From Escherichia coli (lineage in GTDB: Bacteria; Pseudomonadota; Gammaproteobacteria; Enterobacterales; Enterobacteriaceae): a DNA stretch of 64,000 nucleotides. Position numbers and translations under genes: made by a program. The DNA lies in NCBI RefSeq assembly GCF_016903815.1, contig NZ_CP069973.1; one strand, given 5' to 3'. The notes beneath the pieces were generated by a model. It had not been told where the DNA came from, ran no database searches, and saw only the letters and a list, made by a program, of their open reading frames with translations. Below are positions 33,219-57,433 of the stretch, one piece after another. The first letter of the stretch is position 1. Each line of letters starts with the position of its first letter.

Positions 33219-33489
33219 GATGTTACCGTAGTATGTGAGTATCCATCGAATAGACACCAAGCAAAAAAGCTCCCGAAGGAGCCTTCATTTTCACTTTTTT
33301 AAATCCAACGACAGACGGCTGGCATTTAAGTATTGTGAAATATTATCAAATGTAATCATCATTGATTTACAAAAGATACATTTTGCCCCGAAAGGATTCA
33401 TGTCAGAAACATCAAAAGATGATGTTCTATACTGGGAACCATGACAACACGGGCATCTAAAGTGAATATGGTTTGTAATATTGTCTACC

Positions 33490-33702
33490 TCAAAGCGCCA
33501 CTACATGAACAGCGGCAGGACCTTTAGGTCCGTTCTCAATACCAAATTCAACTTCCTGATTCTCAGTTAATGTTTTGAAATCGTTGCTCTGAATTGCTGA
33601 GAAATGGACAAACACATCTTTGCTGCCATCTTTCGGCGTGATGAAACCAAAACCTTTTTCAGGGTTAAACCATTTCACTAAACCAGTCATTTTGTTAGAC
33701 AT
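33490..33702 (-). CDS. cspI: Cold shock protein CspI-like
   Basis: [23 protein letters not shown]... with RNP1 and RNP2 motifs. Confidence 0.85.
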
Positions 33703-34064
33703 AATTATTACCTTTTGAAGAAATTAGCCCTTGGGCAGAATGGTCCGAAAAAAAATATCAGAGAGAAAAACCAACAAGGAAATCTCAAGAGGTACAAATA
33801 ATAAAATTATAACAATGACTGCTTCAGATAAATTTGTAACAAACCAGAACACCATTAACGCATGATTAACCACCCATAGCAAGGATTACTTTTGTAAAGA
33901 AAAACACAGCAATGAAAGAATAGCTTTATTTATTAATAAAACGTGTCATTCTGATTAAGACCTTTTATCTTACCCTTAAGATTTCAGGAATTTTGGCTCA
34001 TGGAAGAGTCCTTTTTATTTAAATTTTACATTCCGCGATGTAAATGTTCCGATTTAATATTACC

Positions 34065-35404: not shown

Positions 35405-35620
35405 TTACTCTCCTCTCGCAGCCTTACGCCTGTCTTCTTTAATCTTGAAATAAAGATTTGTCAGATACGTCAGCAGGCCAAAAACCAGGCTACCCAGCAC
35501 ACCGATTGCAGCCCACTGTGACGGAGTTACTTTATCGAGTAACTGCAATGCCCAGAAACCAGCATTACCCGCCGATGTGCCATAGGCAACACCTGTTGTT
35601 AACTTATCCATTGATTTCAT
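35405..35620 (-). CDS. essQ: Pinholin (phage 21 S-like) with dual-start motif
   Basis: [28 protein letters not shown]...; two TM segments; the Met-Lys-Ser-Met start resembles a holin/antiholin dual start. Confidence 0.8.
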
Positions 35621-35836
35621 ATCCTCACCCCGATGTACACGGATGGTGCAATATGTTTGAAAAGATCGGAGTCTACGGGGTAGTTTTGACAGCACACGTT
35701 GTTCTCAACGGCGCTAAAAAAACATACACATTAAAAATGTGGGTAATTATTTTGAAAGAAAGTCATATATAAAATAATAATACGAGAAATGTTTTCATAT
35801 TTAGTGTACTGTATACGGCCATTTATACAGGAAAAG

Positions 35837-36010
35837 CCTATGTCAGAACGTAAAAACTCAAAATCACGCCGTAATTATCTCGTTAAATGTTCCTGCCCAA
35901 ACTGCACCCAAGAGTCAGAACACAGTTTTTCAAGAGTACAAAAAGGTGCCCTTTTGATCTGCCCTCATTGCAACAAAGTATTCCAGACAAATCTTAAAGC
36001 TGTAGCCTGA
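35837..36010 (+). CDS. Hypothetical small zinc-ribbon protein
   Basis: 57-aa ORF with CxxC...CxxC (CPNC...CPHC), Lys/Arg-rich N-terminus; weak RBS. Confidence 0.35.
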   Translation, partial: PMSERKNSKSRRNYLVKCSCPNCTQESEHSFSRVQKGALLICPHCNKVFQTNLKAVA

Positions 36011-36119
36011 TTGATTTTATTAGTAACAAGTATTTTTTATATTTTAATAATATATTTAAAGCAGATAAATAAATATCCTCCGGCATAGCCGGAGGTTTTT
36101 CAAATGCGCCTATAAGGCT

Positions 36120-36810
36120 CTCTTACCAGCCGCGCCCTAACAGGCGCACACGATCTGACATTTGCATCCAACTTCGTTACTTACGGCCCGTAAACGGGCT
36201 GCCCGGATAGGGAATCGATAACTGCTCTCCCATTTTATCCTCTTCAAGCTGGTGCTTTATGTAATCCTGTATCTTCGCCGTGTTCTTACCCACTGTATCG
36301 ACGTAGTACCCTCTGCACCAGAACTCCCTGTTCCTGTATTTGAATTTCAAATCACCAAACTGCTCGTAAAGCATCAGACTGCTTTTCCCTTTCAGATATC
36401 CCATAAACCCGGATACGCTCATTTTGGGCGGGATCTCCACAAGCATATGGATATGATCTGCACAGCATTCAGCTTCCAGAATCCGTACGCTTTTCCACTC
36501 ACACAGCTTTCTCAAAATACTGCCTATTGCTCTACGCTTCTCTCTGTAGAACACCTGTCTTCGGTATTTTGGCGCAAAAACTATGTGATATTTACAGTTC
36601 CATCGGGTGTGCGCTAAGCTCTTTTCGTTCCCCATTGGGACCCCCTTTTGATTTCTTGTTTGACACTTGCAGTTGCCAGACCGCAAGGTGTTTTAACAAA
36701 TCAAAAGGGGTTTTAATAACTGGCTCAAAGCTGAAAGCTTTCCGGAACCCCCAGCCTAGCTGGGGGTTTTCTGTGCACAATAAAAAACCCGCCTGAGCGG
36801 GTTTGAGATT
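36120..36810 (-). mobile_element. IS200-like insertion sequence (approximate bounds)
   Basis: 152-aa Y1 transposase with hairpins upstream (acccccagcctagctgggggtttt, aacccgcctgagcgggttt); about 0.7 kb, typical of IS200. Confidence 0.55.
36177..36635 (-). CDS. tnpA: IS200/IS605-family transposase TnpA (Y1 HUH)
   Basis: MGNEKSLAHTRWNCKYHIVFAPKYRRQ...HIHMLVEIPPK...; HUH motif (HIHML) and catalytic Tyr region. Confidence 0.85.
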   Translation of the reverse strand: MGNEKSLAHTRWNCKYHIVFAPKYRRQVFYREKRRAIGSILRKLCEWKSVRILEAECCADHIHMLVEIPPKMSVSGFMGYLKGKSSLMLYEQFGDLKFKYRNREFWCRGYYVDTVGKNTAKIQDYIKHQLEEDKMGEQLSIPYPGSPFTGRK

Positions 36811-37085
36811 GTGGTGCTTTTTGTGGGAGTCATCCACTTACGCACTTTGTTTTGCCATGCCAGCAGTTAGCTTCTGCTGTAAAACTATTCATGCAGCAAA
36901 CCTGCACTTCACCACAATGGTTAGCATACTTTTCCTGATTAAGATTTTGCCAAATATGCTAGCCATTGTTTCATGTATTGGACCTCCTTACTTTTTATTA
37001 AAGAGATCCAATATTCACTACTCTGTCCGTATCTCTACTCAGGCATCAGCCTTCTTCGTTATCGTATACAGACGAGCGATGAATT

Positions 37086-37301
37086 TTAATCAGTAATGAT
37101 GACATTTGCTGCTGCAGGACCTTTAGCACCACTCTCTATAGAGAAGGTAACCTTTTGACCTTCAAATAAGGTTCGATAATTATCATTCTGAATCGCAGAA
37201 AAATGCACAAACACATCTTTACTACCATCAACAGGAGAAATAAAGCCGAAACCTTTATCAGCGTTAAACCATTTTACTAAACCAGTCATTTTATTTGACA
37301 T
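37086..37301 (-). CDS. cspB: Cold shock protein CspB-like
   Basis: [23 protein letters not shown]..., 71 aa. Confidence 0.85.
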
Positions 37302-37601
37302 TCTACATTCCTTAACTTGAGCCTTTCGGCATAAATGGTTTGCATAACAGAAACGACTTCGTACTTAATTGGAGAGACTCAAAGAAGGAATAAGTGAATA
37401 ACACCTGAAATGAGAACTGCTTTAGTAAACTACTTCGTATATCGTCTGTTCTTCAAACCGACGCAATCATTAACGCATAGTTGAACATATGAAGCAATGT
37501 TTATTTTAGACATCCAGCCATCTTCAACCCCATCAAAAAACTATAGCTTTCTTCAGGAACGTGTGTATAGTGCGCCAAGTTATCAGTATTAAGGAATTTT
37601 T

Positions 37602-38235: not shown

Positions 38236-38988
38236 TTATCTCGTCACCTTCCTCAATTGCGCTTCCGCGTATGCTTCTTCCTGCCAGCACTTTGTTACCA
38301 GTTTACCAATGACGTCCGCATACCCCTTATACCACTGATAATCGGTCAGGTCTGGTACCAGCTTCTGGACATGACGTCGTGCCAGCGTGGTCGGTAAACG
38401 ACTAAACCGGTTTCCATTACAACGCCCACAAATCTTATATACCGGTACGCCATGAAACCGGGTTCTTTTTTCATCCAGAACAATCCCTTTACCCTTACAC
38501 CCTCTGCACGCTGTGCTGGCTTCGCCCTTACCATGGCAATGCTGACATAGTTCCTTCACCCATTCTTCCTTGATTACAGATTCCCCGCGTCTGTAGTGTT
38601 TCACCACTTCGCGCAATACATTATAAAATCCCGTACCTGAACAATGCTCACAGCGAGCCTTACTTGCCGCAGACCTGGAGTAATCAGCAAAGGCAAAACT
38701 CACGAGGTAAGGAATAATCTGTAACCGGATTTCTTCACTCAATTTGTTCAATGTCGGGTTATCCAGTGCCATCGCGTAATTTAGCAGGCCTTCAATCGCA
38801 AACTGAGGGTCCTGAACACCAACTTTTGCCAGAAATAAGGCCAACCCAAGTGGTGCTTTCGACTGCACCATCCCCTGCGCTGCCATTACATCCGTAATTG
38901 TTAAACAACCGGTGCCTGTCGCTGGAGCGTCATCGCTCAATTTTGGAGATTTTGGGGAGTAATATTTTGGTAAGGCTTCAAGGTTCAT
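38236..38988 (-). CDS. quuQ: Late gene antiterminator Q (zinc-binding)
   Basis: MNLEALPKYYSPK... with CxxC pairs (CEHCSGTG, CQHCHGKG, CRGCKGKG); positioned upstream of the lysis cassette. Confidence 0.8.
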   Translation of the reverse strand: MNLEALPKYYSPKSPKLSDDAPATGTGCLTITDVMAAQGMVQSKAPLGLALFLAKVGVQDPQFAIEGLLNYAMALDNPTLNKLSEEIRLQIIPYLVSFAFADYSRSAASKARCEHCSGTGFYNVLREVVKHYRRGESVIKEEWVKELCQHCHGKGEASTACRGCKGKGIVLDEKRTRFHGVPVYKICGRCNGNRFSRLPTTLARRHVQKLVPDLTDYQWYKGYADVIGKLVTKCWQEEAYAEAQLRKVTR

Positions 38989-39001: not shown

Positions 39002-40090
39002 TTACGCCAGTACGCCAATTGTCAGCGCGCGATCGATAAAACGAAATATCAGCTCCAGTTGGGAGCCATACTTATCTTCAAATGCCACTGTATCCGTATG
39101 CAGCTCGTTGTGATGCTTTCTGCACAAAGGCAACACAAAGAGATCATGTGCTTTTGTTCCCATTCCGCCCTGCCCGTGACCAATCAGATGATGCGGATCG
39201 TCGGCTGGCATACCGCAGCAAGCACACGGCTGTGTCTTAACCCAACGTGTGTATTTCTCCTTAACCCAGCGGCGACGTTTAGGCAGCTTCATGAAAGATT
39301 CCGGAGACTCTGGATCAACGGTGATGCTTACCACCGTCTTTTCCTGTGGTGATTTTTGTTGCTGGTGGGCGTAAGGCAACGGTGCAAGATTTTTTGTGCG
39401 TTGTTTCAATATGCTGGTGGCGGTCTGCTCTCCCGGTACGATGTCGCTTTCGCGGTACACCGAGCAGATTTTTTCCGCTGGTAATCCCAGCGAACGACGC
39501 GATACAGCCTCAGGTAGTGCATCCACCACCTGATTGCAGACCGCCCACCAGGATAATTCAGCCAAAGATAATTCCCGCTCCTGCGTACCGCTTATTGCGT
39601 GACGGATGACGTCAATCACCCATGCTGTCAGATTTTGTTGAGCAAGCAGCTCCAGTGATTCCGATGTCTGGTCACGCAGTTGGTTGTCGCAGTGCCAGCA
39701 CAACACCATTGCGCCGGTACCATAACGGTGAATGACTGTTTCAGTGTGATGGTAATCGCCATTAGGCCACTGGCAGGATGTAACATGACGTAATAGCCAG
39801 TCGGACAATGCGCCAACGCCGCCAGCAGCACGAATCACCCGTTCGTTACTAAAAAACGGCAGCAATGTTTTGTCTTCCGCCAGCGGCTGGCGAACGGCAG
39901 GAACGACTCCGGATGGCAGATTACGCATGCTTTTTGGTTCCGGTTCCACCAGCACTCGAGGATTATGAAATATCTGTATGGATTCACGGCCCGGCTTAAG
40001 GACCACCAGCCCAAGCTCAGGCACCAGAACAGGTCTAAGTAATACCCGCACGTTACCTCCAGATCCGTTGCTGGAAAGTGCGGGACGCAC
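39002..40090 (-). CDS. ydfU: DUF968-family prophage protein YdfU-like
   Basis: 362-aa ORF with C-terminal Cys/His motifs (PCACCG...HHLIGHG...CRKHH), Qin ydfU position. Confidence 0.7.
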   Translation of the reverse strand: MRPALSSNGSGGNVRVLLRPVLVPELGLVVLKPGRESIQIFHNPRVLVEPEPKSMRNLPSGVVPAVRQPLAEDKTLLPFFSNERVIRAAGGVGALSDWLLRHVTSCQWPNGDYHHTETVIHRYGTGAMVLCWHCDNQLRDQTSESLELLAQQNLTAWVIDVIRHAISGTQERELSLAELSWWAVCNQVVDALPEAVSRRSLGLPAEKICSVYRESDIVPGEQTATSILKQRTKNLAPLPYAHQQQKSPQEKTVVSITVDPESPESFMKLPKRRRWVKEKYTRWVKTQPCACCGMPADDPHHLIGHGQGGMGTKAHDLFVLPLCRKHHNELHTDTVAFEDKYGSQLELIFRFIDRALTIGVLA

Positions 40091-40331
40091 GTGGTGGGCG
40101 TTCGGAATAAGGCAGCCTGACAGAGATTATCCAGTGCCGATAGTCGAGACTGAGAGCTTTCTTAACCTCGAACCCGCGCCTGCGGTAAGAATGAATCAGC
40201 CATTCGGCCTGTTCTGCAGTGCATGGAGGGTGCTGGAACCATTCAGACTTGAATGCGTGAGAATACCGCCCGTGCGTGCAGGCAAGAACGGGCGAATTAT
40301 CAGAATTGTAATATTTTGCGTTGCGTGCCAT
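40053..40331 (-). CDS. rem: Small prophage protein Rem-like
   Basis: 92-aa ORF downstream of the hok/rel cluster and upstream of ydfU. Confidence 0.5.
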   Translation of the reverse strand: MARNAKYYNSDNSPVLACTHGRYSHAFKSEWFQHPPCTAEQAEWLIHSYRRRGFEVKKALSLDYRHWIISVRLPYSERPPRASRTFQQRIWR

Positions 40332-40397
40332 CGGTTTTCTCCGGTGGCACGGTGTTACTCAGCGGGAGTTCAGCCCCGCGCAAGATTGTAGATGAGT

Positions 40398-40649
40398 TTA
40401 TTCTCCTGAAAAAGCAGAAAAGCCAGCTTTTATTCCGATCTCTTTCAATGCCTGTAATGAAGTGACAAACTCACCTTCGCGCAAGATAAATCCGTCCGTG
40501 ACCCGAGCATCCACAAAATTAATTAACGCAGCCCCATTCTTTCGCAAACACATAATGCGGTAATGACTAACAAGATTTCCATTTTCAACGCACACAGCAT
40601 AGAGGCCATCTTCACAAAAAATTTTACGCAGTTCTTCGATGTTCATCAT
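40398..40649 (-). CDS. Hypothetical small protein
   Basis: 83-aa ORF between hokD and rem; no family recognised. Confidence 0.4.
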   Translation of the reverse strand: MMNIEELRKIFCEDGLYAVCVENGNLVSHYRIMCLRKNGAALINFVDARVTDGFILREGEFVTSLQALKEIGIKAGFSAFSGE

Positions 40650-40865
40650 CAGAATCCTTCCGGATAATTAGCTCTCCCCTTTAAGGGACCATCCCTCTTA
40701 TCCCTGCGCGCTACTTAAGTATTTTTGATTCTATTCCGGCACCGTCCAGAACTTCAAACGCGTTGAAAATAAAAACAAAAACCCGCCGAAGCGGGTTAAG
40801 TGCGGGTGCGTTGAGGATGCCTGCCACATCAGAGGTGGCGAGGGATTTCTCCCCCGCCGGGTCTC

Positions 40866-41021
40866 TTACTCCTCAGGTTCGTAAGCTGTGAAGACAGCGA
40901 CCTCCGTCTGGCCGGTTCGGATTCGTACCTCGCAGAGGTCTTTCCTCGTTACCAGTGCCGTCACTATGACGGTTAAACAGATGACGATCAGGGCGATTAA
41001 CATCGCCTTTTGCTGCTTCAT
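40866..41021 (-). CDS. hokD: Hok-family toxin HokD (RelF)
   Basis: Minus-strand translation MKQQKAMLIALIVICLTVIVTALVTRKDLCEVRIRTGQTEVAVFTAYEPEE (51 aa), not in the ORF track. Confidence 0.85.
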   Translation of the reverse strand: MKQQKAMLIALIVICLTVIVTALVTRKDLCEVRIRTGQTEVAVFTAYEPEE

Positions 41022-41092
41022 AGCCTGCTTCTCCTGTCAACGCAAAGCAGAAGTGTCACCTTCGGTGCGAAACAGAGATGTCATGCTTTGGT

Positions 41093-41380
41093 TCAGAGAA
41101 TGCGTTTGACCGCCTCGCTATATACTTCCGAGCGTTCTCTTTTCCCAACAGAAATCACGAAAACGACAACTTTCTCGTCTATAACCTGGTATACAAGGCG
41201 ATAGCCTGAAGACCGGAGCTTAATCTTGTAACAATCAGGCATACCACGGAGCTTGTTTGCTTCAATCCGGGGTGACTCAAGTACTTCAACCAGCTTCTTT
41301 TTCAACTGTTCACGTACCGTCGAGCCCAGCTTTCGCCATTCCTTTAGTGCCCGCTCGTCAAAATCCAGAAAATACGCCAT
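41093..41380 (-). CDS. relE: mRNA interferase toxin RelE
   Basis: MAYFLDFDERALKEWRKLGSTVREQLKKKLVEVLE..., 95 aa. Confidence 0.9.
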   Translation of the reverse strand: MAYFLDFDERALKEWRKLGSTVREQLKKKLVEVLESPRIEANKLRGMPDCYKIKLRSSGYRLVYQVIDEKVVVFVISVGKRERSEVYSEAVKRIL

Positions 41381-41619
41381 CAGAGTTCATCCAGCGTCAC
41401 ACGTACTGGCTTAGGATTACGAAGCCGTTCTTTCACTATCTCCACAAGTTCAGCATCTTCATCACTCAGGAGTGTCTGTTTGAACGGCAAGCGTTCATTG
41501 TCAGCGATATACTCGAGCATGAGACGAAGCGCTTCAGAAGGAGTTACACCCATTTTTTCAAGCGCGGCGTAAGAACGCGCTTTAAGTTCATCGTCAATAC
41601 GCAGGTTAATGCTACCCAT
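41380..41619 (-). CDS. relB: Antitoxin RelB
   Basis: MGSINLRIDDELKARSYAALEKMGVTPSEALRL..., 79 aa; 1-nt overlap with relE. Confidence 0.9.
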   Translation of the reverse strand: MGSINLRIDDELKARSYAALEKMGVTPSEALRLMLEYIADNERLPFKQTLLSDEDAELVEIVKERLRNPKPVRVTLDEL

Positions 41620-41643
41620 GTCTTACACCTCTTGTAATTACAA

Positions 41644-41949
41644 ATGTCATTACAAGTATCGCACTACAACATGCTTAGGGCAAGTCACGAAGGAAGTCAG
41701 AAAGTAGTCGTAAGAACGGTGATCACTGTCCGCTTTGTGCCAGGAGCAGCCATTGCTAAGTCCATCCTGTATTGTGCAGGTCAGCTCGTTTTTAAAGAGT
41801 CCGGCCATCATCTTACTGGTACAGACACCATATACTTTGTGACGGTCAGGCTACATATGCACAACTCAACTTATTCATCTATTTTTTGCTTTAGCATGTC
41901 AGTGTTGCTTTCTCGTCGGCGGGTGAGCGGTGACCTGACCTGTCGATAA
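41644..41949 (+). CDS. ydfV: Hypothetical protein, YdfV-position
   Basis: 101-aa ORF between relB and flxA; positional assignment only. Confidence 0.4.
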   Translation: MSLQVSHYNMLRASHEGSQKVVVRTVITVRFVPGAAIAKSILYCAGQLVFKESGHHLTGTDTIYFVTVRLHMHNSTYSSIFCFSMSVLLSRRRVSGDLTCR

Positions 41950-42151
41950 AGGAACGTAACACGTTTTATGCAACACCCGCATGCGGCAGAAAATTATTGC
42001 CGAACGTTTACCCCTGTCAACAAGCTTTACTTTCTGAGGCGCGCCAGCCCGCGAGGAAAACAATCTGAACATCAAACAATTAATGACACAAGAAATACGA
42101 TTAAAGATTTTTTTGTGCATGCCGATAGTGCTTTTTTAAAAGGAGAAATCT

Positions 42152-42879: not shown

Positions 42880-44300
42880 CCCTATGAATGGATATGCACT
42901 CAACCGAATCGATCTTGGTTTCAATCTTTTTTATCGGGATCAGGCTTCTTTTTAGGTAACTTCGGGGGCTTAACTTGCTGATGACTTTGCGTTCGGCGCG
43001 TAAGCCAGGGATGGTCAGCTTTAGGTTTAACATAGTATTTTGAGCGTAAATCAATACGGGCATTATCCACTCGTTCATGGACACTCTTTTCATCATCCAG
43101 TGGTATAGGCTCCGGGCCATCAACATACTTTTCCCAGCCCAGCGCTTTCCCGTCATACAGAACGTTAATTTCACCGTCAAAGTTCTCGCATACAGTAACA
43201 ACCGAATGCCTAAGTCGATATCCCCGGCCCTCACTGCGTACCTGAAACGCACTGCTTTTGTACTGGAAAGTGAGATTTTTAGACAGAACGCGCTTCGCCT
43301 GTAGGCTGAAGATATAACCCAGTTCCTCTTCAGAATGGTGCACATCAAGATGAGCATTATCAGTAGTACGAGGCGACGTAGCGAACCGGTTGTTATAGGC
43401 TTCAATAAAGGTCGGCAACCATGCATTTGCTGTTTCAATATCACTGATATTCTGAAGCCGCATTTCTTTGACCAGCCTGTCCTGTAGTGTCTGATTGGCG
43501 CGCTCTACCCGCCCTTTTGCCTGCGGGCTGTTGGCATGGATTGGCTCGATGCCCAGTGTCTTTATCGCACGAGTGAACTGGGTCAGCTCACCTTCCCGCT
43601 CTGGGTTATTTACCCTGAATATACTGTGTCTATCAGAGTAGAGAGCGAGCGGTACGCCATGATCATTAAGGTAACCCCGGAGGGTTTCCATGTAAGCCCG
43701 GGTTGTTTCAGCAGGCACAAAACGCAACGCCATCAACGCACTGGTGGCATCATCAATGAAAACGATCAGTGTACATCTGGGGCCTCGATTTTCAAACCAG
43801 TCATGAGGTGAGCCATCAATCTGGATCAGTTCACCGTAAGATGGTCGTCGCATGCGGCGTTGATATATACGGGCAATTTTACGACGGCGTTCACGCCATA
43901 ACCCCTCTTCTATCATCCACTTTCTGAGAGTTTCAACGGATAAAGATAAACCGTGTATCTCGCGCAATTTTTCGCACGCAAACGTAGGTCCAAAATCAGC
44001 GTAACGGCCTTTGAGGAGTGAAATTACTGTTGCTCTGAATTCAGTAGAAAAGGAATTATTAGGACGCTTTCCACGTCGGTGGGAAACCAGACCAGAAGGC
44101 CCTTCATTTCTATACCGTTGCACCAGACGTTTAACCTGCCGAATAGAAATGCCAATGCGTGCCGCAGCTTGTTCCTGAATAATCTGAAGTCGGTGGAGTT
44201 CCTTATGACTCATCGTAACAGTCTCTTTGATCATGAAAAATCCCCCAGAGAATTGTCTGGGGACATTTTAGAATGGTTCAAAGGGGACATTACAGCTTGG
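42880..44300 (-). mobile_element. IS element with rve-type DDE transposase (IS481-family-like; ends not resolved)
   Basis: Single long transposase ORF; terminal inverted repeats could not be defined by eye. Confidence 0.4.
42921..44213 (-). CDS. DDE transposase, HTH plus integrase-core (rve) domain
   Basis: MSHKELHRLQIIQEQ... N-terminal HTH, central DDE-like core, Lys/Pro-rich tail. Confidence 0.75.
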   Translation of the reverse strand: MSHKELHRLQIIQEQAAARIGISIRQVKRLVQRYRNEGPSGLVSHRRGKRPNNSFSTEFRATVISLLKGRYADFGPTFACEKLREIHGLSLSVETLRKWMIEEGLWRERRRKIARIYQRRMRRPSYGELIQIDGSPHDWFENRGPRCTLIVFIDDATSALMALRFVPAETTRAYMETLRGYLNDHGVPLALYSDRHSIFRVNNPEREGELTQFTRAIKTLGIEPIHANSPQAKGRVERANQTLQDRLVKEMRLQNISDIETANAWLPTFIEAYNNRFATSPRTTDNAHLDVHHSEEELGYIFSLQAKRVLSKNLTFQYKSSAFQVRSEGRGYRLRHSVVTVCENFDGEINVLYDGKALGWEKYVDGPEPIPLDDEKSVHERVDNARIDLRSKYYVKPKADHPWLTRRTQSHQQVKPPKLPKKKPDPDKKD

Positions 44301-44717
44301 TGTTAACAATAGCCTGCTTCTCCGTGCCTTTCGGCACGTAAGAGGCTAACCTACATGTGTCTAGCATGAAATTGGCCTCAGATTAATGTTAAGCGTCTTG
44401 CAGGACGCGTAATGTTAACTGGGGCTTTTCTCTATCTGCCTTTGGTGTTCGTGCCCGAGGCAGATAGCCTCAAGCACCCGCCGTGATTCTACAAAAACAT
44501 TACCCACCTTTCCAGCAATTCACAACAACTCCATGCAAATAGTAAGTAGAATAATAAGTTATTAGTATTAGCAATTTACTTAGTTTCTAATTTGTGCCAA
44601 TGATTTTCATTTTTGCATGAAAAATACCTTAACATTTTATATTTACTTACTATTTGTAAGCCCCATCAGTTCTTTCTGATGGCGGCTGGTATTTCAGTTC
44701 CAGATATAGTATATGCT

Positions 44718-45746
44718 TTACGCCTTAATAGGGTTAATCACATTTCCGCTATCCGTACCATAGTATTTTTTTGTAGTCATGCCTTGTTTATAATAATCAT
44801 TTAACAGTTTGAGAAAGTTTCTTCCTTGCCTCTCATCTTCTATGACTAATTTACCATGCTCATTGGTCTTAAACTCTTCGTTCTGAAACATTTTTAGCAC
44901 ATCATTCATAGCTTGAACATCATTCTTTTCCAGAACCGTATGGTTACCTTTCTCAGCGATATGAGTGAGAATTTTTCTCAGTGATGGCTTATGAAGAATA
45001 GCTTGTTCAATAACATCTAAACCTTCAATAAGATCAAGTTCTTTAATTGTATTTAATGTTTTTTGTGCAGCTTCTGTAAACTCAACCTCCAAGCCTACAA
45101 TAGCCTCAAAACTTTTCTTATGAAATACATAAAATTGATCTTTTATATAAATACAATCGATTTTGTCATCAAAATTGACTGCGCTGCCATCAAATGATCT
45201 TAACTCTTTATCTGTTTTATCAAACAAAGCGAATACGCGCTGAGTCATATTTTGTGGTTCATTTGTTGTGACTTTCCCCCTGCTGATTTTTCGGAAAGAA
45301 TAAGTGACGTCAGCCCCCTTTTGGACTTTAATACAATAGGCCCACAAATCATTCTGAACCTCAGCAAGAGAGGTAAGTACAACTGGTTTATCATTCTTTA
45401 TATCGTTATTAATAACTTTTGAAAACGATATCGCGTTATTCATAGCATAGGCATAAATTTTATTATCAATATCATCATCAATAACAGTATGCTTTTTCAT
45501 CACAATATCATCTTTCGAAGCATGAGAAATAATCTGGTTTGATAAAGTATACTTAAAAAATTTAGCAATATCTGGAGCGATTGGAGCTTTAATGATTTTA
45601 AAATCGAATTTATCAACAACTCTTGCGGTTCTACTCATACCCGCTTTAAGATGTCTAGTAATGAAATACAACGATATTTTCGCCGCATCATCATCCTTAA
45701 GTTGCTCAGCATACTCTAATAATTCTTCAAGCTTTAACATTTTCAT
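44718..45746 (-). CDS. Soluble partner protein of candidate defense operon (KwaB-like by architecture, unverified)
   Basis: 342-aa Lys/Asp-rich AT-rich ORF; start overlaps the stop of the upstream membrane-protein gene (ATGA). Confidence 0.5.
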   Translation of the reverse strand: MKMLKLEELLEYAEQLKDDDAAKISLYFITRHLKAGMSRTARVVDKFDFKIIKAPIAPDIAKFFKYTLSNQIISHASKDDIVMKKHTVIDDDIDNKIYAYAMNNAISFSKVINNDIKNDKPVVLTSLAEVQNDLWAYCIKVQKGADVTYSFRKISRGKVTTNEPQNMTQRVFALFDKTDKELRSFDGSAVNFDDKIDCIYIKDQFYVFHKKSFEAIVGLEVEFTEAAQKTLNTIKELDLIEGLDVIEQAILHKPSLRKILTHIAEKGNHTVLEKNDVQAMNDVLKMFQNEEFKTNEHGKLVIEDERQGRNFLKLLNDYYKQGMTTKKYYGTDSGNVINPIKA

Positions 45747-46357
45747 TCCTTATGGGATTCAGCATAAAAAAGTTTTGGGCCCACGTCCTCAACATCAAGA
45801 AGATCATCTTCCTCCAAATACTTTGATTTAGTCAAAACCATACCAGTGCGTTTTTTGTCGCTTTCTAAATCCAAATATGTAACTTGATATAAAGTATAAT
45901 TAATACTTATTGTAGGATTTATAAGTATCATGCTTGAATTAATATATATTAAAGCCGTTACCGTTAACAATATTGCTATAGGTATAACATTAGTTAAAGT
46001 GGATAGATCCTGAAATACAAACGGAATTATATATGTAAAAAGATAGCTTATTGATTCATTGTTTTTATTTTCAATATCTATAACTCTTACAGTTCTACCA
46101 CTAGTGGCGCATCGACGTTTTATATTTTTTAAAAAAATTGTTAATCCTACAATACCAAATAATGATAATACACCAATGACACTGACCGCGCCAAAGTATT
46201 TAAAGAAAATAGTTAATGATTCAACACTTATACCTTTCCAATTTAAATAGCTTCTATAAGTATACAATTGCACAAAACACATGATAAAGAATAGGGGAAG
46301 GTATGACACTATAAATAGCGAAACTCTAGCACCTAAATGTAGTTTATTTACTCTCAT
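45743..46357 (-). CDS. Four-helix membrane protein of candidate defense operon (KwaA-like by architecture, unverified)
   Basis: 204-aa ORF with four hydrophobic stretches (about residues 12-32, 55-76, 103-115, 124-140) and an acidic C-terminal tail. Confidence 0.5.
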   Translation of the reverse strand: MRVNKLHLGARVSLFIVSYLPLFFIMCFVQLYTYRSYLNWKGISVESLTIFFKYFGAVSVIGVLSLFGIVGLTIFLKNIKRRCATSGRTVRVIDIENKNNESISYLFTYIIPFVFQDLSTLTNVIPIAILLTVTALIYINSSMILINPTISINYTLYQVTYLDLESDKKRTGMVLTKSKYLEEDDLLDVEDVGPKLFYAESHKE

Positions 46358-46565
46358 AACTACCCCACAGCCTACACGTCTAGTATTTTATGTTATTTCG
46401 AATAATTATGCATCAGATTACCATCCTACAATTGTGCATAAAACGAGCATTTTGCTGATTTTTCTGCGGATGCCTGAGACAGACAACCTCAAGCACCCGC
46501 AGCAATTTTACTTAACTCCCGCTACCTCGCCAATATGAAATCAATAAGAAAGGTGCTCCATAAAA

Positions 46566-54692: not shown

Positions 54693-54792
54693 CTAAAAGC
54701 CACACTAACGTAACCGGCTCATTTAAACCGTCTGGTCTGTTTCCTCCGGCTCTACAAAAATAATGTCCATCATTTTTAATGGACACTATCGT

Positions 54793-55440
54793 ATGAAACA
54801 CCGGACCTGGATCACTGAAGCTTTACGTCTTCACTTTGAAGAACATTTACCCCGGGTTGTGGCCGGGCGTCGCCTGGGTGTACCAAAATCAACAGTTTGT
54901 AGTATGTTCGTGCGCTTTCGGAGAGCTGGCCTTTCGTGGCCTTTGCCCGCAGGCATGTCGGAGCAGGAACTTGATGCCTGCCTTTACGGACAATTTTCCA
55001 CGGTACCAGTCGTACGTCCTGAAAGCACCGTTATATCCGAAGCCCCCGTGGTAAAAAAACGTCCCCGGCGGCCCAACTTCCCTTATGAGTTTAAAATCGC
55101 CTTAGTGGAGCAGTCACTGCAGCCCGGAGCCTGTGTGGCGCAGATCGCCCGGGAAAACGGAATCAACGATAACCTGCTCTTCAACTGGCGCCATCAATAC
55201 CGGAAAGGTGGCCTGCTGCCTTCCGGAAAAAATATGCCGGCACTGCTTCCCGTGACGTTAACGCCGGAGCCGGATAATAAAATCCCGGCCCCCGCACAGG
55301 AACCAGAGCAGATAAATACACCGTCCGACAGTCTGTGTTGTGAGCTGGTTCTGCCGGCCGGAACTCTCAGGCTTAAAGGTAAACTGACGCCGGCGTTATT
55401 ACAGACACTTATCCGCGAAATAAAAGGGAGCAGCCACTGA
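54793..55440 (+). CDS. IS66-family accessory protein TnpA
   Basis: HTH-containing ORF with KRPRRPNFPYEFKIALVEQSL...; start uncertain (54763 or 54793). Confidence 0.7.
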   Translation: MKHRTWITEALRLHFEEHLPRVVAGRRLGVPKSTVCSMFVRFRRAGLSWPLPAGMSEQELDACLYGQFSTVPVVRPESTVISEAPVVKKRPRRPNFPYEFKIALVEQSLQPGACVAQIARENGINDNLLFNWRHQYRKGGLLPSGKNMPALLPVTLTPEPDNKIPAPAQEPEQINTPSDSLCCELVLPAGTLRLKGKLTPALLQTLIREIKGSSH

Positions 55441-55787
55441 TGATATCTCTCCCTGCAGGTTCGCGTATCTGGCTGGTTGCAGGTATCACCGATATGCGAA
55501 ATGGCTTTAACGGCCTGGCATCAAAAGTTCAGAACGTCCTGAAGGATGACCCGTTCTCCGGACACCTGTTCATCTTCCGCGGACGCCGGGGTGACCAGAT
55601 AAAAGTGTTGTGGGCTGACAGTGACGGACTGTGCCTCTTCACCAAACGCCTGGAGCGGGGCCGCTTCGTCTGGCCAGTCACCCGTGACGGCAAGGTGCAC
55701 CTTACTCCGGCTCAGTTATCCATGCTTCTTGAAGGTATCAACTGGAAGCACCCGAAACGAACGGAACGCGCTGGAATCCGCATATAA
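55440..55787 (+). CDS. IS66-family accessory protein TnpB
   Basis: 115-aa ORF MISLPAGSRIWLVAGITDMRNGFNGLA... Confidence 0.85.
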   Translation: MISLPAGSRIWLVAGITDMRNGFNGLASKVQNVLKDDPFSGHLFIFRGRRGDQIKVLWADSDGLCLFTKRLERGRFVWPVTRDGKVHLTPAQLSMLLEGINWKHPKRTERAGIRI

Positions 55788-55806
55788 CCCGTTGTAAAGT
55801 GAGGAT

Positions 55807-57378
55807 ATGGACACCTCACTTGCTCATGAGAACGCCCGCCTGCGGGCACTGTTGCAGACGCAACAGGACACCATCCGCCAGATGGCTGAATACAACCGCC
55901 TGCTCTCACAGCGGGTGGCGGCTTATGCTTCCGAAATCAACCGGCTGAAGGCGCTGGTTGCGAAACTGCAACGTATGCAGTTCGGTAAAAGCTCAGAAAA
56001 ACTTCGTGCAAAAACCGAACGGCAGATACAGGAAGCACAGGAGCGAATCAGCGCACTTCAGGAAGAAATGGCGGAAACGCTGGGTGAGCAATATGACCCG
56101 GTACTGCCATCCGCCCTGCGCCAGTCTTCAGCCCGTAAACCGTTACCGGCCTCACTTCCCCGTGAAACCCGGGTTATCCGGCCGGAAGAGGAATGCTGTC
56201 CTGCCTGTGGTGGTGAACTCAGTTCTCTGGGATGTGATGTGTCAGAGCAACTGGAGCTTATCAGCAGCGCCTTTAAGGTTATCGAAACACAACGTCCGAA
56301 ACAGGCCTGTTGCCGGTGCGACCATATCGTGCAGGCACCAGTACCTTCAAAACCCATTGCACGCAGTTATGCCGGAGCGGGGCTTCTGGCCCATGTTGTC
56401 ACCGGGAAATATGCAGACCATCTGCCGTTATACCGCCAGTCAGAAATATACCGTCGTCAGGGAGTGGAGCTGAGCCGTGCCACACTGGGGCGCTGGACAG
56501 GTGCTGTTGCTGAACTGCTGGAGCCGCTGTATGACGTCCTGCGCCAGTATGTGCTGATGCCCGGTAAAGTCCATGCTGATGATATCCCCGTCCCGGTCCA
56601 GGAGCCGGGCAGCGGTAAAACCCGGACAGCCCGGCTGTGGGTCTACGTCCGTGATGACCGTAACGCCGGTTCACAGATGCCCCCGGCGGTCTGGTTCGCG
56701 TACAGTCCGGACCGGAAAGGTATCCATCCACAAAATCACCTGGCCGGTTACAGCGGTGTGCTTCAGGCCGATGCTTACGGTGGTTACCGGGCGTTATACG
56801 AATCCGGCAGAATAACGGAAGCCGCGTGTATGGCTCATGCCCGGAGAAAAATCCACGATGTGCATGCAAGAGCGCCCACCTACATCACCACGGAAGCCCT
56901 GCAGCGTATCGGTGAACTGTATGCCATCGAGGCAGAGGTCCGGGGCTGTTCAGCAGAACAGCGTCTGGCGGCAAGAAAAGCCAGAGCCGCGCCACTGATG
57001 CAGTCACTGTATGACTGGATACAGCAACAGATGAAAACACTGTCGCGTCACTCAGATACGGCAAAAGCGTTCGCATACCTGCTGAAACAGTGGGATGCAC
57101 TGAACGTGTACTGCAGTAATGGCTGGGTGGAAATCGACAACAACATCGCAGAGAACGCCTTACGGGGAGTGGCCGTAGGCCGGAAAAACTGGATGTTCGC
57201 GGGTTCCAACAGCGGTGGTGAACATGCGGCGGTGTTGTACTCGCTGATCGGCACATGCCGTCTGAACAATGTGGAGCCAGAAAAGTGGCTGCGTTACGTC
57301 ATTGAACATATCCAGGACTGGCCGGCAAACCGGGTACGCGATCTGTTGCCCTGGAAAGTTGATCTGAGCTCTCAGTAA
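55807..57378 (+). CDS. IS66-family transposase TnpC
   Basis: 523-aa ORF with N-terminal leucine zipper, CxxC zinc-finger region and DDE core. Confidence 0.85.
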
Positions 57379-57433
57379 ATATCAATACGGTTCTGACGAG
57401 TCGCTTACACACTAACTAATGAGAGAAGTTGAA

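Follow-up and report, generated by a model that had tools for sequence, protein, structure and literature searches.

An IS200C copy recently inserted behind a host terminator in the Q-to-holin interval of a Qin-like Escherichia coli prophage

Introduction

The insertion sequence IS200 of Salmonella is a well-described close relative of the E. coli element considered here. It is 707 bp long, and it carries at nt 12-34 a left-end (LE) hairpin, which is a bidirectional terminator that shields the transposase gene tnpA from incoming transcription, and at nt 69-138 a stem-loop that sequesters the SD (PMC4513863). Its antisense sRNA art200 has 90 nt, and its sequence complements the 5'UTR together with the first three tnpA codons. 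The protection of tnpA from outside transcription rests on terminators, and the stem-loop, art200 and Hfq block its translation; a Y125F TnpA was the catalytically dead control mutant in that work (PMC4513863). IS200 has been described as essentially immobile in the recent literature (PMC12594629). Salmonella IS200 and E. coli IS200C are alike in their size of about 710 bp, in their single 152-aa Y1 HUH transposase and in their match to STnc490; they share the LE terminator hairpin, the SD-sequestering stem-loop and the right-end hairpin, and both are devoid of inverted repeats and of target duplication. Apart from the length (712 bp for the copy studied here), nothing substantive separates them. 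This copy lies in the late-regulatory region of a prophage, and its lineage has an unusually high number of identical copies (about 20).

IS608 and ISDra2 are the mechanistic models for the "peel and paste" single-strand transposition of this family. They have in common with IS200C a Y1 transposase, subterminal hairpins with a purine-rich stretch 5' of their feet (GAAAA in IS200C), and an insertion 3' of a short target without duplication. Their target, however, is a plain tetra- or pentanucleotide (TTAC and TTGAT, respectively), whereas IS200C is flanked by a T-tract, nearly always with a host hairpin before it. Bacterial group IIC introns insert just downstream of intrinsic terminator hairpins in a fixed orientation. 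This is the same niche and the same fixed orientation as those of the left ends of IS200-group elements, but the likeness is one of analogy only, since these introns move with a ribozyme and a reverse transcriptase and IS200 with an HUH transposase.

The other system to which this locus can be connected is the accessory region between Q and S of the lambdoid phages. In these phages, the PR'/tR' arrangement lies downstream of Q, and it is the model for the candidate sites that we describe below. The stx genes of the Stx phages are an example of accessory genes found between Q and S. Here, likewise, cspF, cspB and ynfU stand between Q, with its putative PR', and the holin gene, and antiterminated late transcription would cross them as in lambdoid phages. 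The cargo differs from that of the Stx phages, as it is made of cold-shock paralogues and of a small zinc protein.

The prophage and its Q-to-holin interval

We analysed a window of 64,000 nt of an E. coli genome, which contains a lambdoid, Qin-like prophage of about 52 kb. This prophage is the host of the IS200C and ynfU locus. The features that frame the insertion are the following.

38236-38988, minus strand: quuQ/ydfT, late antiterminator Q (Pfam Antiterm, 4.2e-54; RefSeq annotation)
38205-38176, minus strand: candidate late promoter TTTGCA-18-TAAAAT, just downstream of Q (consensus scan)
38130-38107, minus strand: putative tR'-like hairpin, just downstream of Q (sequence reading)
37086-37301, minus strand (37086-37462 with its 5'UTR): cspB, upstream of the target terminator (Pfam CSD, 9.8e-32); the 5'UTR, also on the minus strand, is a cspA-type thermoregulator (Rfam cspA thermoregulator, 158.8 bits)
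36785-36804, minus strand: host intrinsic terminator, AAACCCGCTCAGGCGGGTTT and T-tract (terminator scan; DNA fold z = -5.7)
36067-36778, minus strand: IS200C, complete, 712 bp (empty-site alignment against K-12 MG1655 and phage 2H10)
35840-36010, plus strand: ynfU, predicted zinc-ribbon small protein, 56 aa and stop (100% DNA identity to K-12 b4776)
35405-35620, minus strand: essQ/essD holin (Pfam Phage_holin_2_1, 1.1e-33; RefSeq annotation)

Read along the minus strand, the interval thus runs through quuQ/ydfT, cspF, cspB, IS200C, ynfU and essQ/essD, the latter being the first gene of a lysis cassette that continues with ydfR, rrrQ and rzpQ/rzoQ. This order bears out the sequence-only reading of this DNA, which had placed an insertion sequence between Q and the lysis cassette, and between the lysis genes and cspB. 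The placement of the late promoter and of tR' is a consensus-level guess, drawn from the lambdoid arrangement. The prophage carries other lesions: an IS66 separates xis from int, a fragment of an ISNCY is present, and a tail-fibre gene is truncated.

Our main reading, to which we give a probability of roughly 0.88, is that a complete and apparently functional IS200C occupies the Q-to-holin interval behind a terminator, with little polarity on the late genes, and that ynfU is older and unrelated to it. Both the IS200C copy and ynfU are already known and annotated.

Extent and identity of the IS200C copy

The alignment to the empty sites delimits an insert of 712 bp, with a register that can shift by up to 2 nt because of T residues, so that 36069-36780 is also possible. 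The other E. coli IS200C copies align over the same span (98-100% DNA identity with the annotated ones), and the insert measures 711-712 bp among copies, according to the multi-copy and empty-site comparisons. The element announced by the sequence-only reading is hence real, but the limit proposed at 36810 takes in the host hairpin at 36785-36804, and the end is at 36778, give or take the 2 nt of register. We considered whether this hairpin could be a part of the IS and rejected the idea, because the empty sites have it too and the flanking hairpins differ between copies. An Rfam Trp_leader match at 36779-36863 was disregarded as well (21.7 bits against 41, E 0.69), for it is merely the host terminator hairpin.

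Comparisons of filled and empty sites at Qin, carB-caiF and rplS-yfiB reveal neither terminal inverted repeats nor a target-site duplication in IS200C, with only 1-2 nt of ambiguity in A/T runs. For the aroG-gpmA copy, the empty-site comparison found the exact flank to be absent from K-12. The window holds no second IS200 copy.

The transposase gene is the sole ORF of the element, and no tnpB ORF is found inside the 712 bp.

36177-36635, minus strand: tnpA, Y1 (HUH) single-strand DNA transposase, 152 aa (Pfam Y1_Tnp, 3.8e-38)

RefSeq/PGAP labels the product "IS200/IS605-like element IS200C family transposase". It scores 147.7 bits against NCBIfam transpos_IS200 (NF033573; cutoff 55), it is also matched by a PHROG transposase family, and it has the HUH motif at residues 61-63 and the catalytic Tyr125. 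These profile matches and motifs confirm the Y1 transposase that had been proposed from the letters of the sequence.

Terminal hairpins and RNA structures

The structures by which IS200 controls its own expression can be recognized in this copy.

36746-36768, minus strand: LE hairpin, IS nt 11-33 (10-bp GC-rich stem, RNA and DNA folds)
36641-36710, minus strand: 5'UTR stem-loop hiding the ribosome-binding site (RNA fold; Rfam STnc490)
36627-36716, plus strand: predicted art200 antisense sRNA (homology only)
36077-36095, minus strand: right-end subterminal hairpin CCTCCGGCTATGCCGGAGG, IS nt 684-702 (DNA fold; both-strand terminator scan)

The Rfam family STnc490 matches 36645-36768, that is, IS nt 11-134, with 146.4 bits (gathering score 56) and E 6.4e-31, and the LE hairpin corresponds to its positions 1-23. 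The RNA fold upstream of tnpA has z = -5.0, and the minimum-free-energy fold reproduces the SD-occluding stem-loop. The region of the predicted art200 is near-identical to the Rfam consensus. At the other extremity, the right-end hairpin is followed by ATATTTATT(T) up to the IS end, and it is conserved throughout the 15 E. coli copies that were compared. Read on the plus strand, it is terminator-like, with TTTTTC, and lies 67 nt past the ynfU stop codon. The LE and right-end hairpins are both stable as ssDNA in the DNA folds, and the LE hairpin is likely the subterminal hairpin bound by TnpA. The upstream hairpins taken as an IS200 hallmark in the sequence-only reading are therefore found, as the LE hairpin and the 5'UTR stem-loop, and the folds and Rfam give the element IS200 terminal structures at both ends.

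The insertion event and its spread

The K-12 Qin prophage and the sequenced phage 2H10 both have the same site without IS200C. Compared with K-12 Qin, the flanks show 100% identity in the aligned region and about 99.8-99.97% over the wider flanks of 5-6 kb. Among 5,426 complete E. coli genomes, 58 have the filled site, with 100% identity. Since the flanks match K-12 Qin and the filled site is shared at this identity by 58 complete genomes, these features are not due to chance. IS200C itself reaches a coverage of at least 80% in 2,063 genomes, where the median number of places is 2; in the listed carrier strains, about 18-31 places match IS200C, and their lineage has undergone an expansion to about 20 identical copies. 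One of them, strain 7/2, has a second copy elsewhere that is 100% identical.

The insertion is thus recent and lineage-specific, as follows from the empty sites of K-12 and 2H10 and from the 100% identity to copies of the same strain. This filled/empty polymorphism argues for a mobility of IS200C in the carrier lineage, which would be at odds with the immobility attributed to IS200 (PMC12594629). The element would have arrived by the single-strand "peel and paste" route of its family, at a point immediately 3' of the T-tract that belongs to the terminator following cspB. Landing there would fix the orientation of the IS so that it matches that of the late operon.

Left ends and host terminators

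The host terminator at 36785-36804 lies about 280 nt downstream of cspB, and IS200C starts right after its T-rich tail (TTTTTTATT). It is unchanged at the empty sites of K-12 and phage 2H10, and at carB and rplS, likewise, the empty sites of K-12 already have the host hairpin.

The left ends of other copies were also compared. By eye, those of E. coli IS200C stand against a host intrinsic terminator in 15 of 15 cases, and 13 of these 15 pass a strict hairpin test, against a background of 2-3%. In distant bacteria, at least 67 of the 89 unique left-end flanks of IS200-group elements pass the strict test, against 2.8-5.1% of the controls.

The junction falls within a few nt of the foot of the hairpin, and always in one orientation. 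Some copies are in tandem, directly after the right-end hairpin of another copy (L007 in E. coli; L127, L128 and L130 in other bacteria). A purine-rich GAAAA stands 5' of the feet of both IS hairpins and could pair with T-rich cleavage sites. This adjacency of left ends and terminators suggests terminator-directed targeting. In the searchable literature, terminator targeting by IS200 or IS1541 appears only in a 2026 preprint, which reports a statistical enrichment of terminators at IS200 sites and so covers the adjacency only in part, and in an incidental note on pheL. A mechanism of structural mimicry and its near-universality across phyla were not found there, older subscription papers lying outside this search.

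We tentatively propose, with somewhat less than even confidence, that the IS200-group elements are terminator-homing transposons, whose target would be a single-stranded intrinsic terminator that mimics their own right end. The target would take the form of a GC-rich hairpin and then a T-rich tail of 6-10 nt, as does the IS right end with its hairpin and ATATTTATT, and it would be chosen because of this resemblance; the GAAAA 5' of the IS hairpins would pair with the target T-tract. Such homing would explain the exact place of this copy at the terminator downstream of cspB, the orientation that it shares with the late operon, the silence and harmlessness of IS200, and the tandem copies at right ends. 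The same pattern could arise by survivorship, if IS200 inserted at any T-rich pentanucleotide and only the copies in harmless, transcription-free spots lasted. Sites downstream of terminators are indeed neutral, and insertions within genes do occur, the inv::IS1541 of Yersinia pestis being an example; the 2026 preprint, moreover, interprets terminators located upstream as a niche in which the expression of the transposase is kept in check. We nonetheless consider survivorship unlikely. The hairpin is found at 3.8% of T[TC]NTT sites and at 5.1% of the ends of runs of at least 5 T, against at least 75% of the IS flanks, and neither the few nt between junction and hairpin foot, nor the single orientation, nor the tandem copies that directly follow a right-end hairpin speak for it. 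In Yersinia, furthermore, pheL and pheA have an IS1541 between them, and this interval, which includes the attenuator terminator of pheL, is not neutral (PMC3082878).

YnfU, the neighbour of the insertion

The small ORF with two CxxC motifs that the sequence-only reading had seen next to the element is real, and it is a named gene. It encodes the 56 aa of YnfU of K-12 from 35840, and its translation has been detected in K-12 by Weaver et al. (bioRxiv 10.1101/511675). The start, MSERK, is that of RefSeq and of most homologues, and 35789, where the sequence-only reading had begun, is an upstream in-frame ATG that would give an ORF of 73 aa. YnfU scores 107.3 bits against Pfam PF23499 (cutoff 27) and 79.4 bits against NCBIfam NF038384 (cutoff 36). 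Its CxxC motifs are CPNC at residue 19 and CPHC at residue 41. Among 25 homologues, S26, E27, H28, S29 and F30 (the SEHSF core) are invariant together with P20, C22 and P42, and conservation is at least 90% for C17, C19 and C44. It does not differ from the described family (PF23499, NF038384, b4776), as it has the identical sequence, the same Qin position and the same two CPxC zinc knuckles.

Within the prophage, ynfU is an accessory gene whose transcription diverges from that of the holin gene. E. coli phage 2H10 and a Klebsiella phage have conserved it beside the holin gene and on the strand opposite to it. A candidate promoter can be proposed for it.

35752-35781, plus strand: sigma-70-like promoter candidate of ynfU, TTGAAA-18-AATAAT, 10/12 matches (consensus scan only)

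The AF2 model of YnfU is of moderate confidence (pLDDT 68), and Foldseek finds no significant structural neighbour for it in the PDB; the resemblances to archaeal small ribosome-associated zinc fingers (E >= 0.9) and to the PhnA-like PA0128 are weak and non-significant. PHROGs has no family for YnfU. We also considered a DNL-type zinc finger (Tim15/Zim17/Hep1) and rejected it: the sequence match is weak (Tim15, E 0.013), the HLIADNL-like tail is not conserved, Pfam gives no zf-DNL match, and the Foldseek list does not include Tim15. Altogether, ynfU belongs to the older accessory genes of this phage group and has no relation to the IS; its protein, a predicted zinc ribbon, is made in lysogens.

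Consequences for late transcription

The sequence-only reading had suggested a possible polar effect of the insertion on late transcription. On transcription of the ordinary kind, polarity is classical for IS200. Here, the effect on the late genes is probably small and, in a prophage with other lesions, unlikely to matter. Being behind one terminator and carrying its own, IS200C would be transcriptionally insulated and nearly neutral. From the putative placement of the promoter, we infer that late transcripts reaching the holin gene must already be termination-resistant, because the host terminator precedes the IS and is also present in the IS-free phage 2H10. As the Q-modified RNA polymerase must already override this adjacent terminator, it should read through IS200C as well, with a small polarity expected on the late genes; a partial attenuation of the late transcripts may occur.

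A strongly polar IS200, which would reduce or abolish the Q-dependent transcription of lysis and morphogenesis genes and help to make the prophage defective, appears improbable to us. The element does lie between Q and the holin gene, co-oriented with the late operon, in a prophage with other signs of decay; its right-end hairpin is terminator-like on the late strand too, and the LE hairpin is the published bidirectional terminator (PMC4513863). Yet the insertion point abuts a strong host terminator that is present in IS-free K-12 and phage 2H10, where antitermination would already be needed if the late promoter is just downstream of Q. Lambdoid Q complexes ignore intrinsic terminators. The connection could also work in reverse, with induction leading Q to read through the host and LE terminators and to flood the cell with tnpA and 5'tnpA RNA, so that the IS200 copy or its sRNAs would be activated. 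The element has the same orientation as the late operon and is placed downstream of the putative PR', phage replication would supply single-stranded DNA, the carrier lineage has expanded to about 20 identical copies, and the protection of tnpA is normally terminator-dependent (PMC4513863). We hold this scenario to be very improbable, as it is entirely inferential, as the stem-loop, art200 and Hfq would still keep tnpA from being translated (PMC4513863), and as the expansion may be unrelated to a prophage copy that may itself be non-inducible. It is just as improbable that the insertion matters mainly for ynfU, by giving it a new plus-strand terminator that would alter the 3' end, the stability or the level of its mRNA. 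The plus-strand hairpin CCTCCGGCATAGCCGGAGG with its TTTTTC does lie past the ynfU stop codon, and the next plus-strand hairpin in K-12 has a poor T-tail; neither the coding sequence of ynfU nor its promoter region, however, differs from K-12.

Concluding remarks

The reading that we favour, that of a complete IS200C behind a terminator with little effect on the late genes, gives little weight to this locus taken alone: the copy is routine and annotated, the prophage around it is decaying, the small-protein gene beside it is catalogued, and this gene, ynfU, is a conserved accessory gene that stands next to the holin gene in lambdoid phages. The copy is nevertheless a clean natural example of an IS200C that moved recently in some E. 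coli lineages, and its landing precisely behind a host terminator limits the harm to the host and to the phage. If terminator homing is mechanistic, it would provide a simple and testable account of the target choice of the IS200 group and of its long-term persistence.

The prophage locus and its IS200 element

A Qin-like lambdoid prophage of E. coli carries the insertion in its late-regulatory part. The gene order there was established from the ORF list, from Pfam and from how RefSeq annotates identical genomes; on the minus strand it reads as follows, together with the cold-shock leaders:

38236-38988 (-): quuQ/ydfT, the antiterminator Q
between Q and cspB (+): cspF (ORF list, Pfam and RefSeq)
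37086-37301 (-): cspB, with a cspA-type thermoregulator leader
37070-37462 (-): thermoregulator 5'UTR of cspB (RF01766, 158.8 bits)
36177-36635 (-): transposase ORF
35840-36010 (+): ynfU, a small ORF between the transposase ORF and the lysis cassette
35405-35620: essQ/essD holin, opening the lysis cassette, then ydfR, rrrQ and rzpQ/rzoQ
33463-33848 (-): thermoregulator 5'UTR of cspI (RF01766, 112.8 bits)

Each of the two cold-shock genes of the prophage, cspB and cspI, has a full-length 5'UTR of the cspA thermoregulator type (Rfam RF01766). On both sides of the IS, identity to K-12 Qin is 99.8-99.97%, and strain 7/2 (NZ_CP023820.1) is 99.99% identical to the window across 41 kb, an extra IS1 aside.

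The sequence-only reading had placed an IS200 insertion and a zinc-ribbon mini-ORF in the interval from Q to the lysis genes, and both are indeed there. The IS200-type identity is borne out by the Y1 transposase with its HUH and Tyr125 motifs, by a match to STnc490 and by hairpins at both ends. The 152-aa transposase matches Pfam Y1_Tnp (3.8e-38), NCBIfam transpos_IS200 (147.7 bits, cutoff 55) and PHROG transposase families, and it carries the HUH motif (H61-I-H63) and Tyr125, the same tyrosine that was mutated by Ellis et al. to make a catalytically dead control (PMC4513863). Rfam STnc490 (IS200 5' region) matches 36645-36768 (-) with 146.4 bits (gathering score 56), and the RNA fold of 36610-36810 (-) reaches -79.3 kcal/mol (z = -5.0). 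This fold agrees with the layout published for Salmonella IS200: a 10-bp GC-rich left-end hairpin at IS nt 11-33, whose Salmonella counterpart (nt 12-34) is a bidirectional terminator, and a long 5' stem-loop whose 3' arm masks the Shine-Dalgarno AAAAGGGGGU directly before the ATG at IS nt 144 (PMC4513863 for Salmonella). At the right end, a terminator scan and DNA fold find the hairpin CCTCCGGCTATGCCGGAGG followed by ATATTTATT(T).

A recent insertion into Qin

Aligned with K-12 MG1655, the window holds 712 extra bases at 36067-36778 between flanks that are 100% identical, with a 2-nt (AA) ambiguity in register and no target duplication. At unrelated loci, 14 further IS200C copies of E. coli have exactly the same span, and the empty K-12 sites carB-caiF and rplS-yfiB confirm the ends of two other copies to within one T. 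The Qin site is also empty in phage 2H10 (NC_049950), which keeps the Q-cspF-cspB-ynfU-holin layout at 96% identity. It is filled in 58 of 5,426 complete E. coli genomes, always at 100% identity. IS200C itself occurs in 2,063 genomes (at least 80% coverage), in which the number of matching places has a median of 2 and a maximum of 35; the listed strains with 100% identical copies, several of them carrying the Qin insertion, have 18-31 places, and in strain 7/2 a second copy elsewhere is 100% identical. The empty sites in K-12 and 2H10, the 58 filled ones and the identical copies in carriers argue that the known element IS200C transposed into Qin recently, in a lineage-specific event. Such an event is noteworthy solely given the literature view of IS200, which is described in recent papers as essentially immobile (PMC12594629). 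Copy number is very uneven, suggesting that this element, usually called immobile, has recently gone through a burst.

Effect on late transcription

The insertion had also been proposed to polarise late transcription, an idea that we regard as weak speculation. Directly downstream of Q, a consensus scan and reading of the sequence found a promoter-like site (38205-38176) and a terminator-like hairpin (38130-38107), which by the usual lambdoid arrangement would be candidate PR'/tR' (38205-38107). About 2.5 kb of accessory genes separate this candidate late promoter from the holin. On the path of the late transcript stands a strong intrinsic terminator at 36804-36785 (8-bp stem and T6, DNA fold z = -5.7), also present in K-12 and in the IS-free phage 2H10, and the IS starts immediately past it. 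Since this terminator would be passable solely by Q-modified, termination-resistant polymerase, the anatomy argues that the IS should have a small effect. In Q antitermination, the modified polymerase should likewise ignore the two additional IS hairpins. The opposite effect is equally conceivable, if speculative: on induction, antiterminated read-through might defeat the shielding of the IS and raise the output of tnpA or 5'tnpA RNA.

Other lesions of the prophage also count toward IS polarity mattering little:

~54760-57380 (39364-41979 in compared locus L017; also L020): ISCro1 (IS66 family: tnpA, tnpB, transposase), between xis and int, adjoining rspB
~43190-46360 (L017 27792-30958): early-region stretch with an ISNCY transposase fragment and the two genes after it, where K-12 Qin runs on towards dicC

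ISCro1 probably uncouples xis and int, and a tail-fibre gene is truncated. Further IS are found in some strains, such as the IS1 of strain 7/2. In four genomes (NZ_CP023960.1 and three others), the 2-kb region around the IS200C site matches in two pieces spanning 3.3 kb, with an IS3-family transposase insertion inside it; the prophage region therefore tolerates repeated IS hits. After the ISNCY fragment come a gene annotated with a Kiwa KwaB-like anti-phage domain and a hypothetical gene.

The ynfU gene

The mini-ORF is ynfU, b4776 of K-12, with identical DNA. The proposed CxxC...CxxC ORF is thus real; the start assigned to it at 35789 is an upstream in-frame ATG, and MSERK is the annotated start and that of most homologues. 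YnfU matches Pfam PF23499 (107 bits, cutoff 27) and NCBIfam NF038384 (79 bits, cutoff 36), and its knuckles are CPNC and CPHC. The gene was discovered through ribosome profiling of initiation complexes by Weaver et al.; tagged YnfU ranked first in abundance among their new small proteins, and they noted its zinc knuckles and modest PA0128 resemblance (bioRxiv 10.1101/511675).

The family is small, with 49 matches, all in Enterobacteriaceae. Eight deposited phage records hold ynfU (seven Escherichia, one Klebsiella). E. coli phage 2H10 and a Klebsiella phage both have the gene immediately upstream of the holin gene and on the strand opposite to it. In phages 2H10 (L018 3501-3668) and Tritos it is present (98% identity) without annotation; the remaining records call it merely a 'hypothetical protein'.

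Matches to PDB sequences are marginal (Tim15, E 0.013; PA0128, E 0.11), and a DNL-type (Tim15-like) assignment was rejected because the DNL-like tail is not conserved across homologues. The AF2 model is a generic zinc ribbon (pLDDT 68), with which Foldseek returned no neighbour below E 0.9. Our best guess, held with low confidence, is that YnfU would be a lysogen-expressed accessory protein whose zinc ribbon may bind nucleic acid or a partner protein.

IS200-group left ends mostly adjoin terminators

Each of the 15 E. coli copies has its left end (GTGCACAGAAAACCCCC...) against a GC-rich hairpin and T-run, always in the same orientation; at Qin this flank is 36779-36810. Of the 15 copies, 13 have a co-directional gene directly upstream; these genes include rplS, wzzB, lom, dmlA, aroG, icd, carB and luxS, and cspB at Qin. 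A strict test was passed by 13/15 copies; it asked for a perfect outer stem of 6 bp, with G/C at 4 positions or more, that stops a few nt short of the junction. As background, 2.9% of the T[TC]NTT sites in the window pass it, and 1.8% of positions drawn at random. Scanning one genome per species with the 17-nt left-end hairpin core CCCCAGCTAGGCTGGGG gave 120 loci (L022-L141) in a wide variety of bacteria, among them Vibrio, Brenneria, Oxalobacter, Mailhella/Desulfovibrio, Peptococcaceae and Bacillota MAGs. At least 67 of the 89 unique left-end flanks passed the strict test and most others have imperfect hairpins, while in the controls the rate was 2.8% for random positions, 3.8% for T[TC]NTT sites and 5.1% for the places where a run of at least 5 T ends.

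The exact core is common to elements of Gammaproteobacteria, Betaproteobacteria, Desulfovibrionales and several Bacillota MAGs, which implies that the hairpin is under strong constraint and that horizontal spread has been wide. Many core matches are at the ends of contigs, suggesting that they belong to multi-copy repeats. At five loci (L041, L042, L083, L102, L101), the hairpin sequence occurs in ~45-nt units made of a left-end-like start, the hairpin and a right-end-like ATrTTTATTT tail (in Dickeya, a long perfect palindrome instead), with no transposase between the two end-like parts; these units may be miniature IS200-derived elements.

The terminator adjacency may reflect structural target choice or survivorship. 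The right end of the IS has the same shape (hairpin and ATATTTATT), and in tandem IS200 copies (L007, on plasmid pNMBU-W05E18_02, L127, L128 and L130) the second copy begins 0-2 T residues from the right end of the first, a placement that fits the right end acting as an insertion target. GAAAA precedes both IS hairpins and could pair with T-rich cleavage sites, like the guide sequences of IS608. On K-12 coordinates, the top strand of the IS would be the lagging-strand template of a counter-clockwise fork; the IS200/IS605 family prefers the lagging-strand template. In Yersinia, IS1541 lies between pheL and pheA, an interval that holds the pheL attenuator terminator (PMC3082878). A 2026 preprint reports that the enrichment of upstream terminator-like sequences is strongest for IS200/IS605 elements, and reads these terminators as limiting transposase expression (10.1101/2025.07.22.666184); the pattern is thus already known, at least in part. 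IS200C and ynfU are both already known and annotated, and the sole lead of wider interest is this possible terminator-homing behaviour of IS200-group elements.
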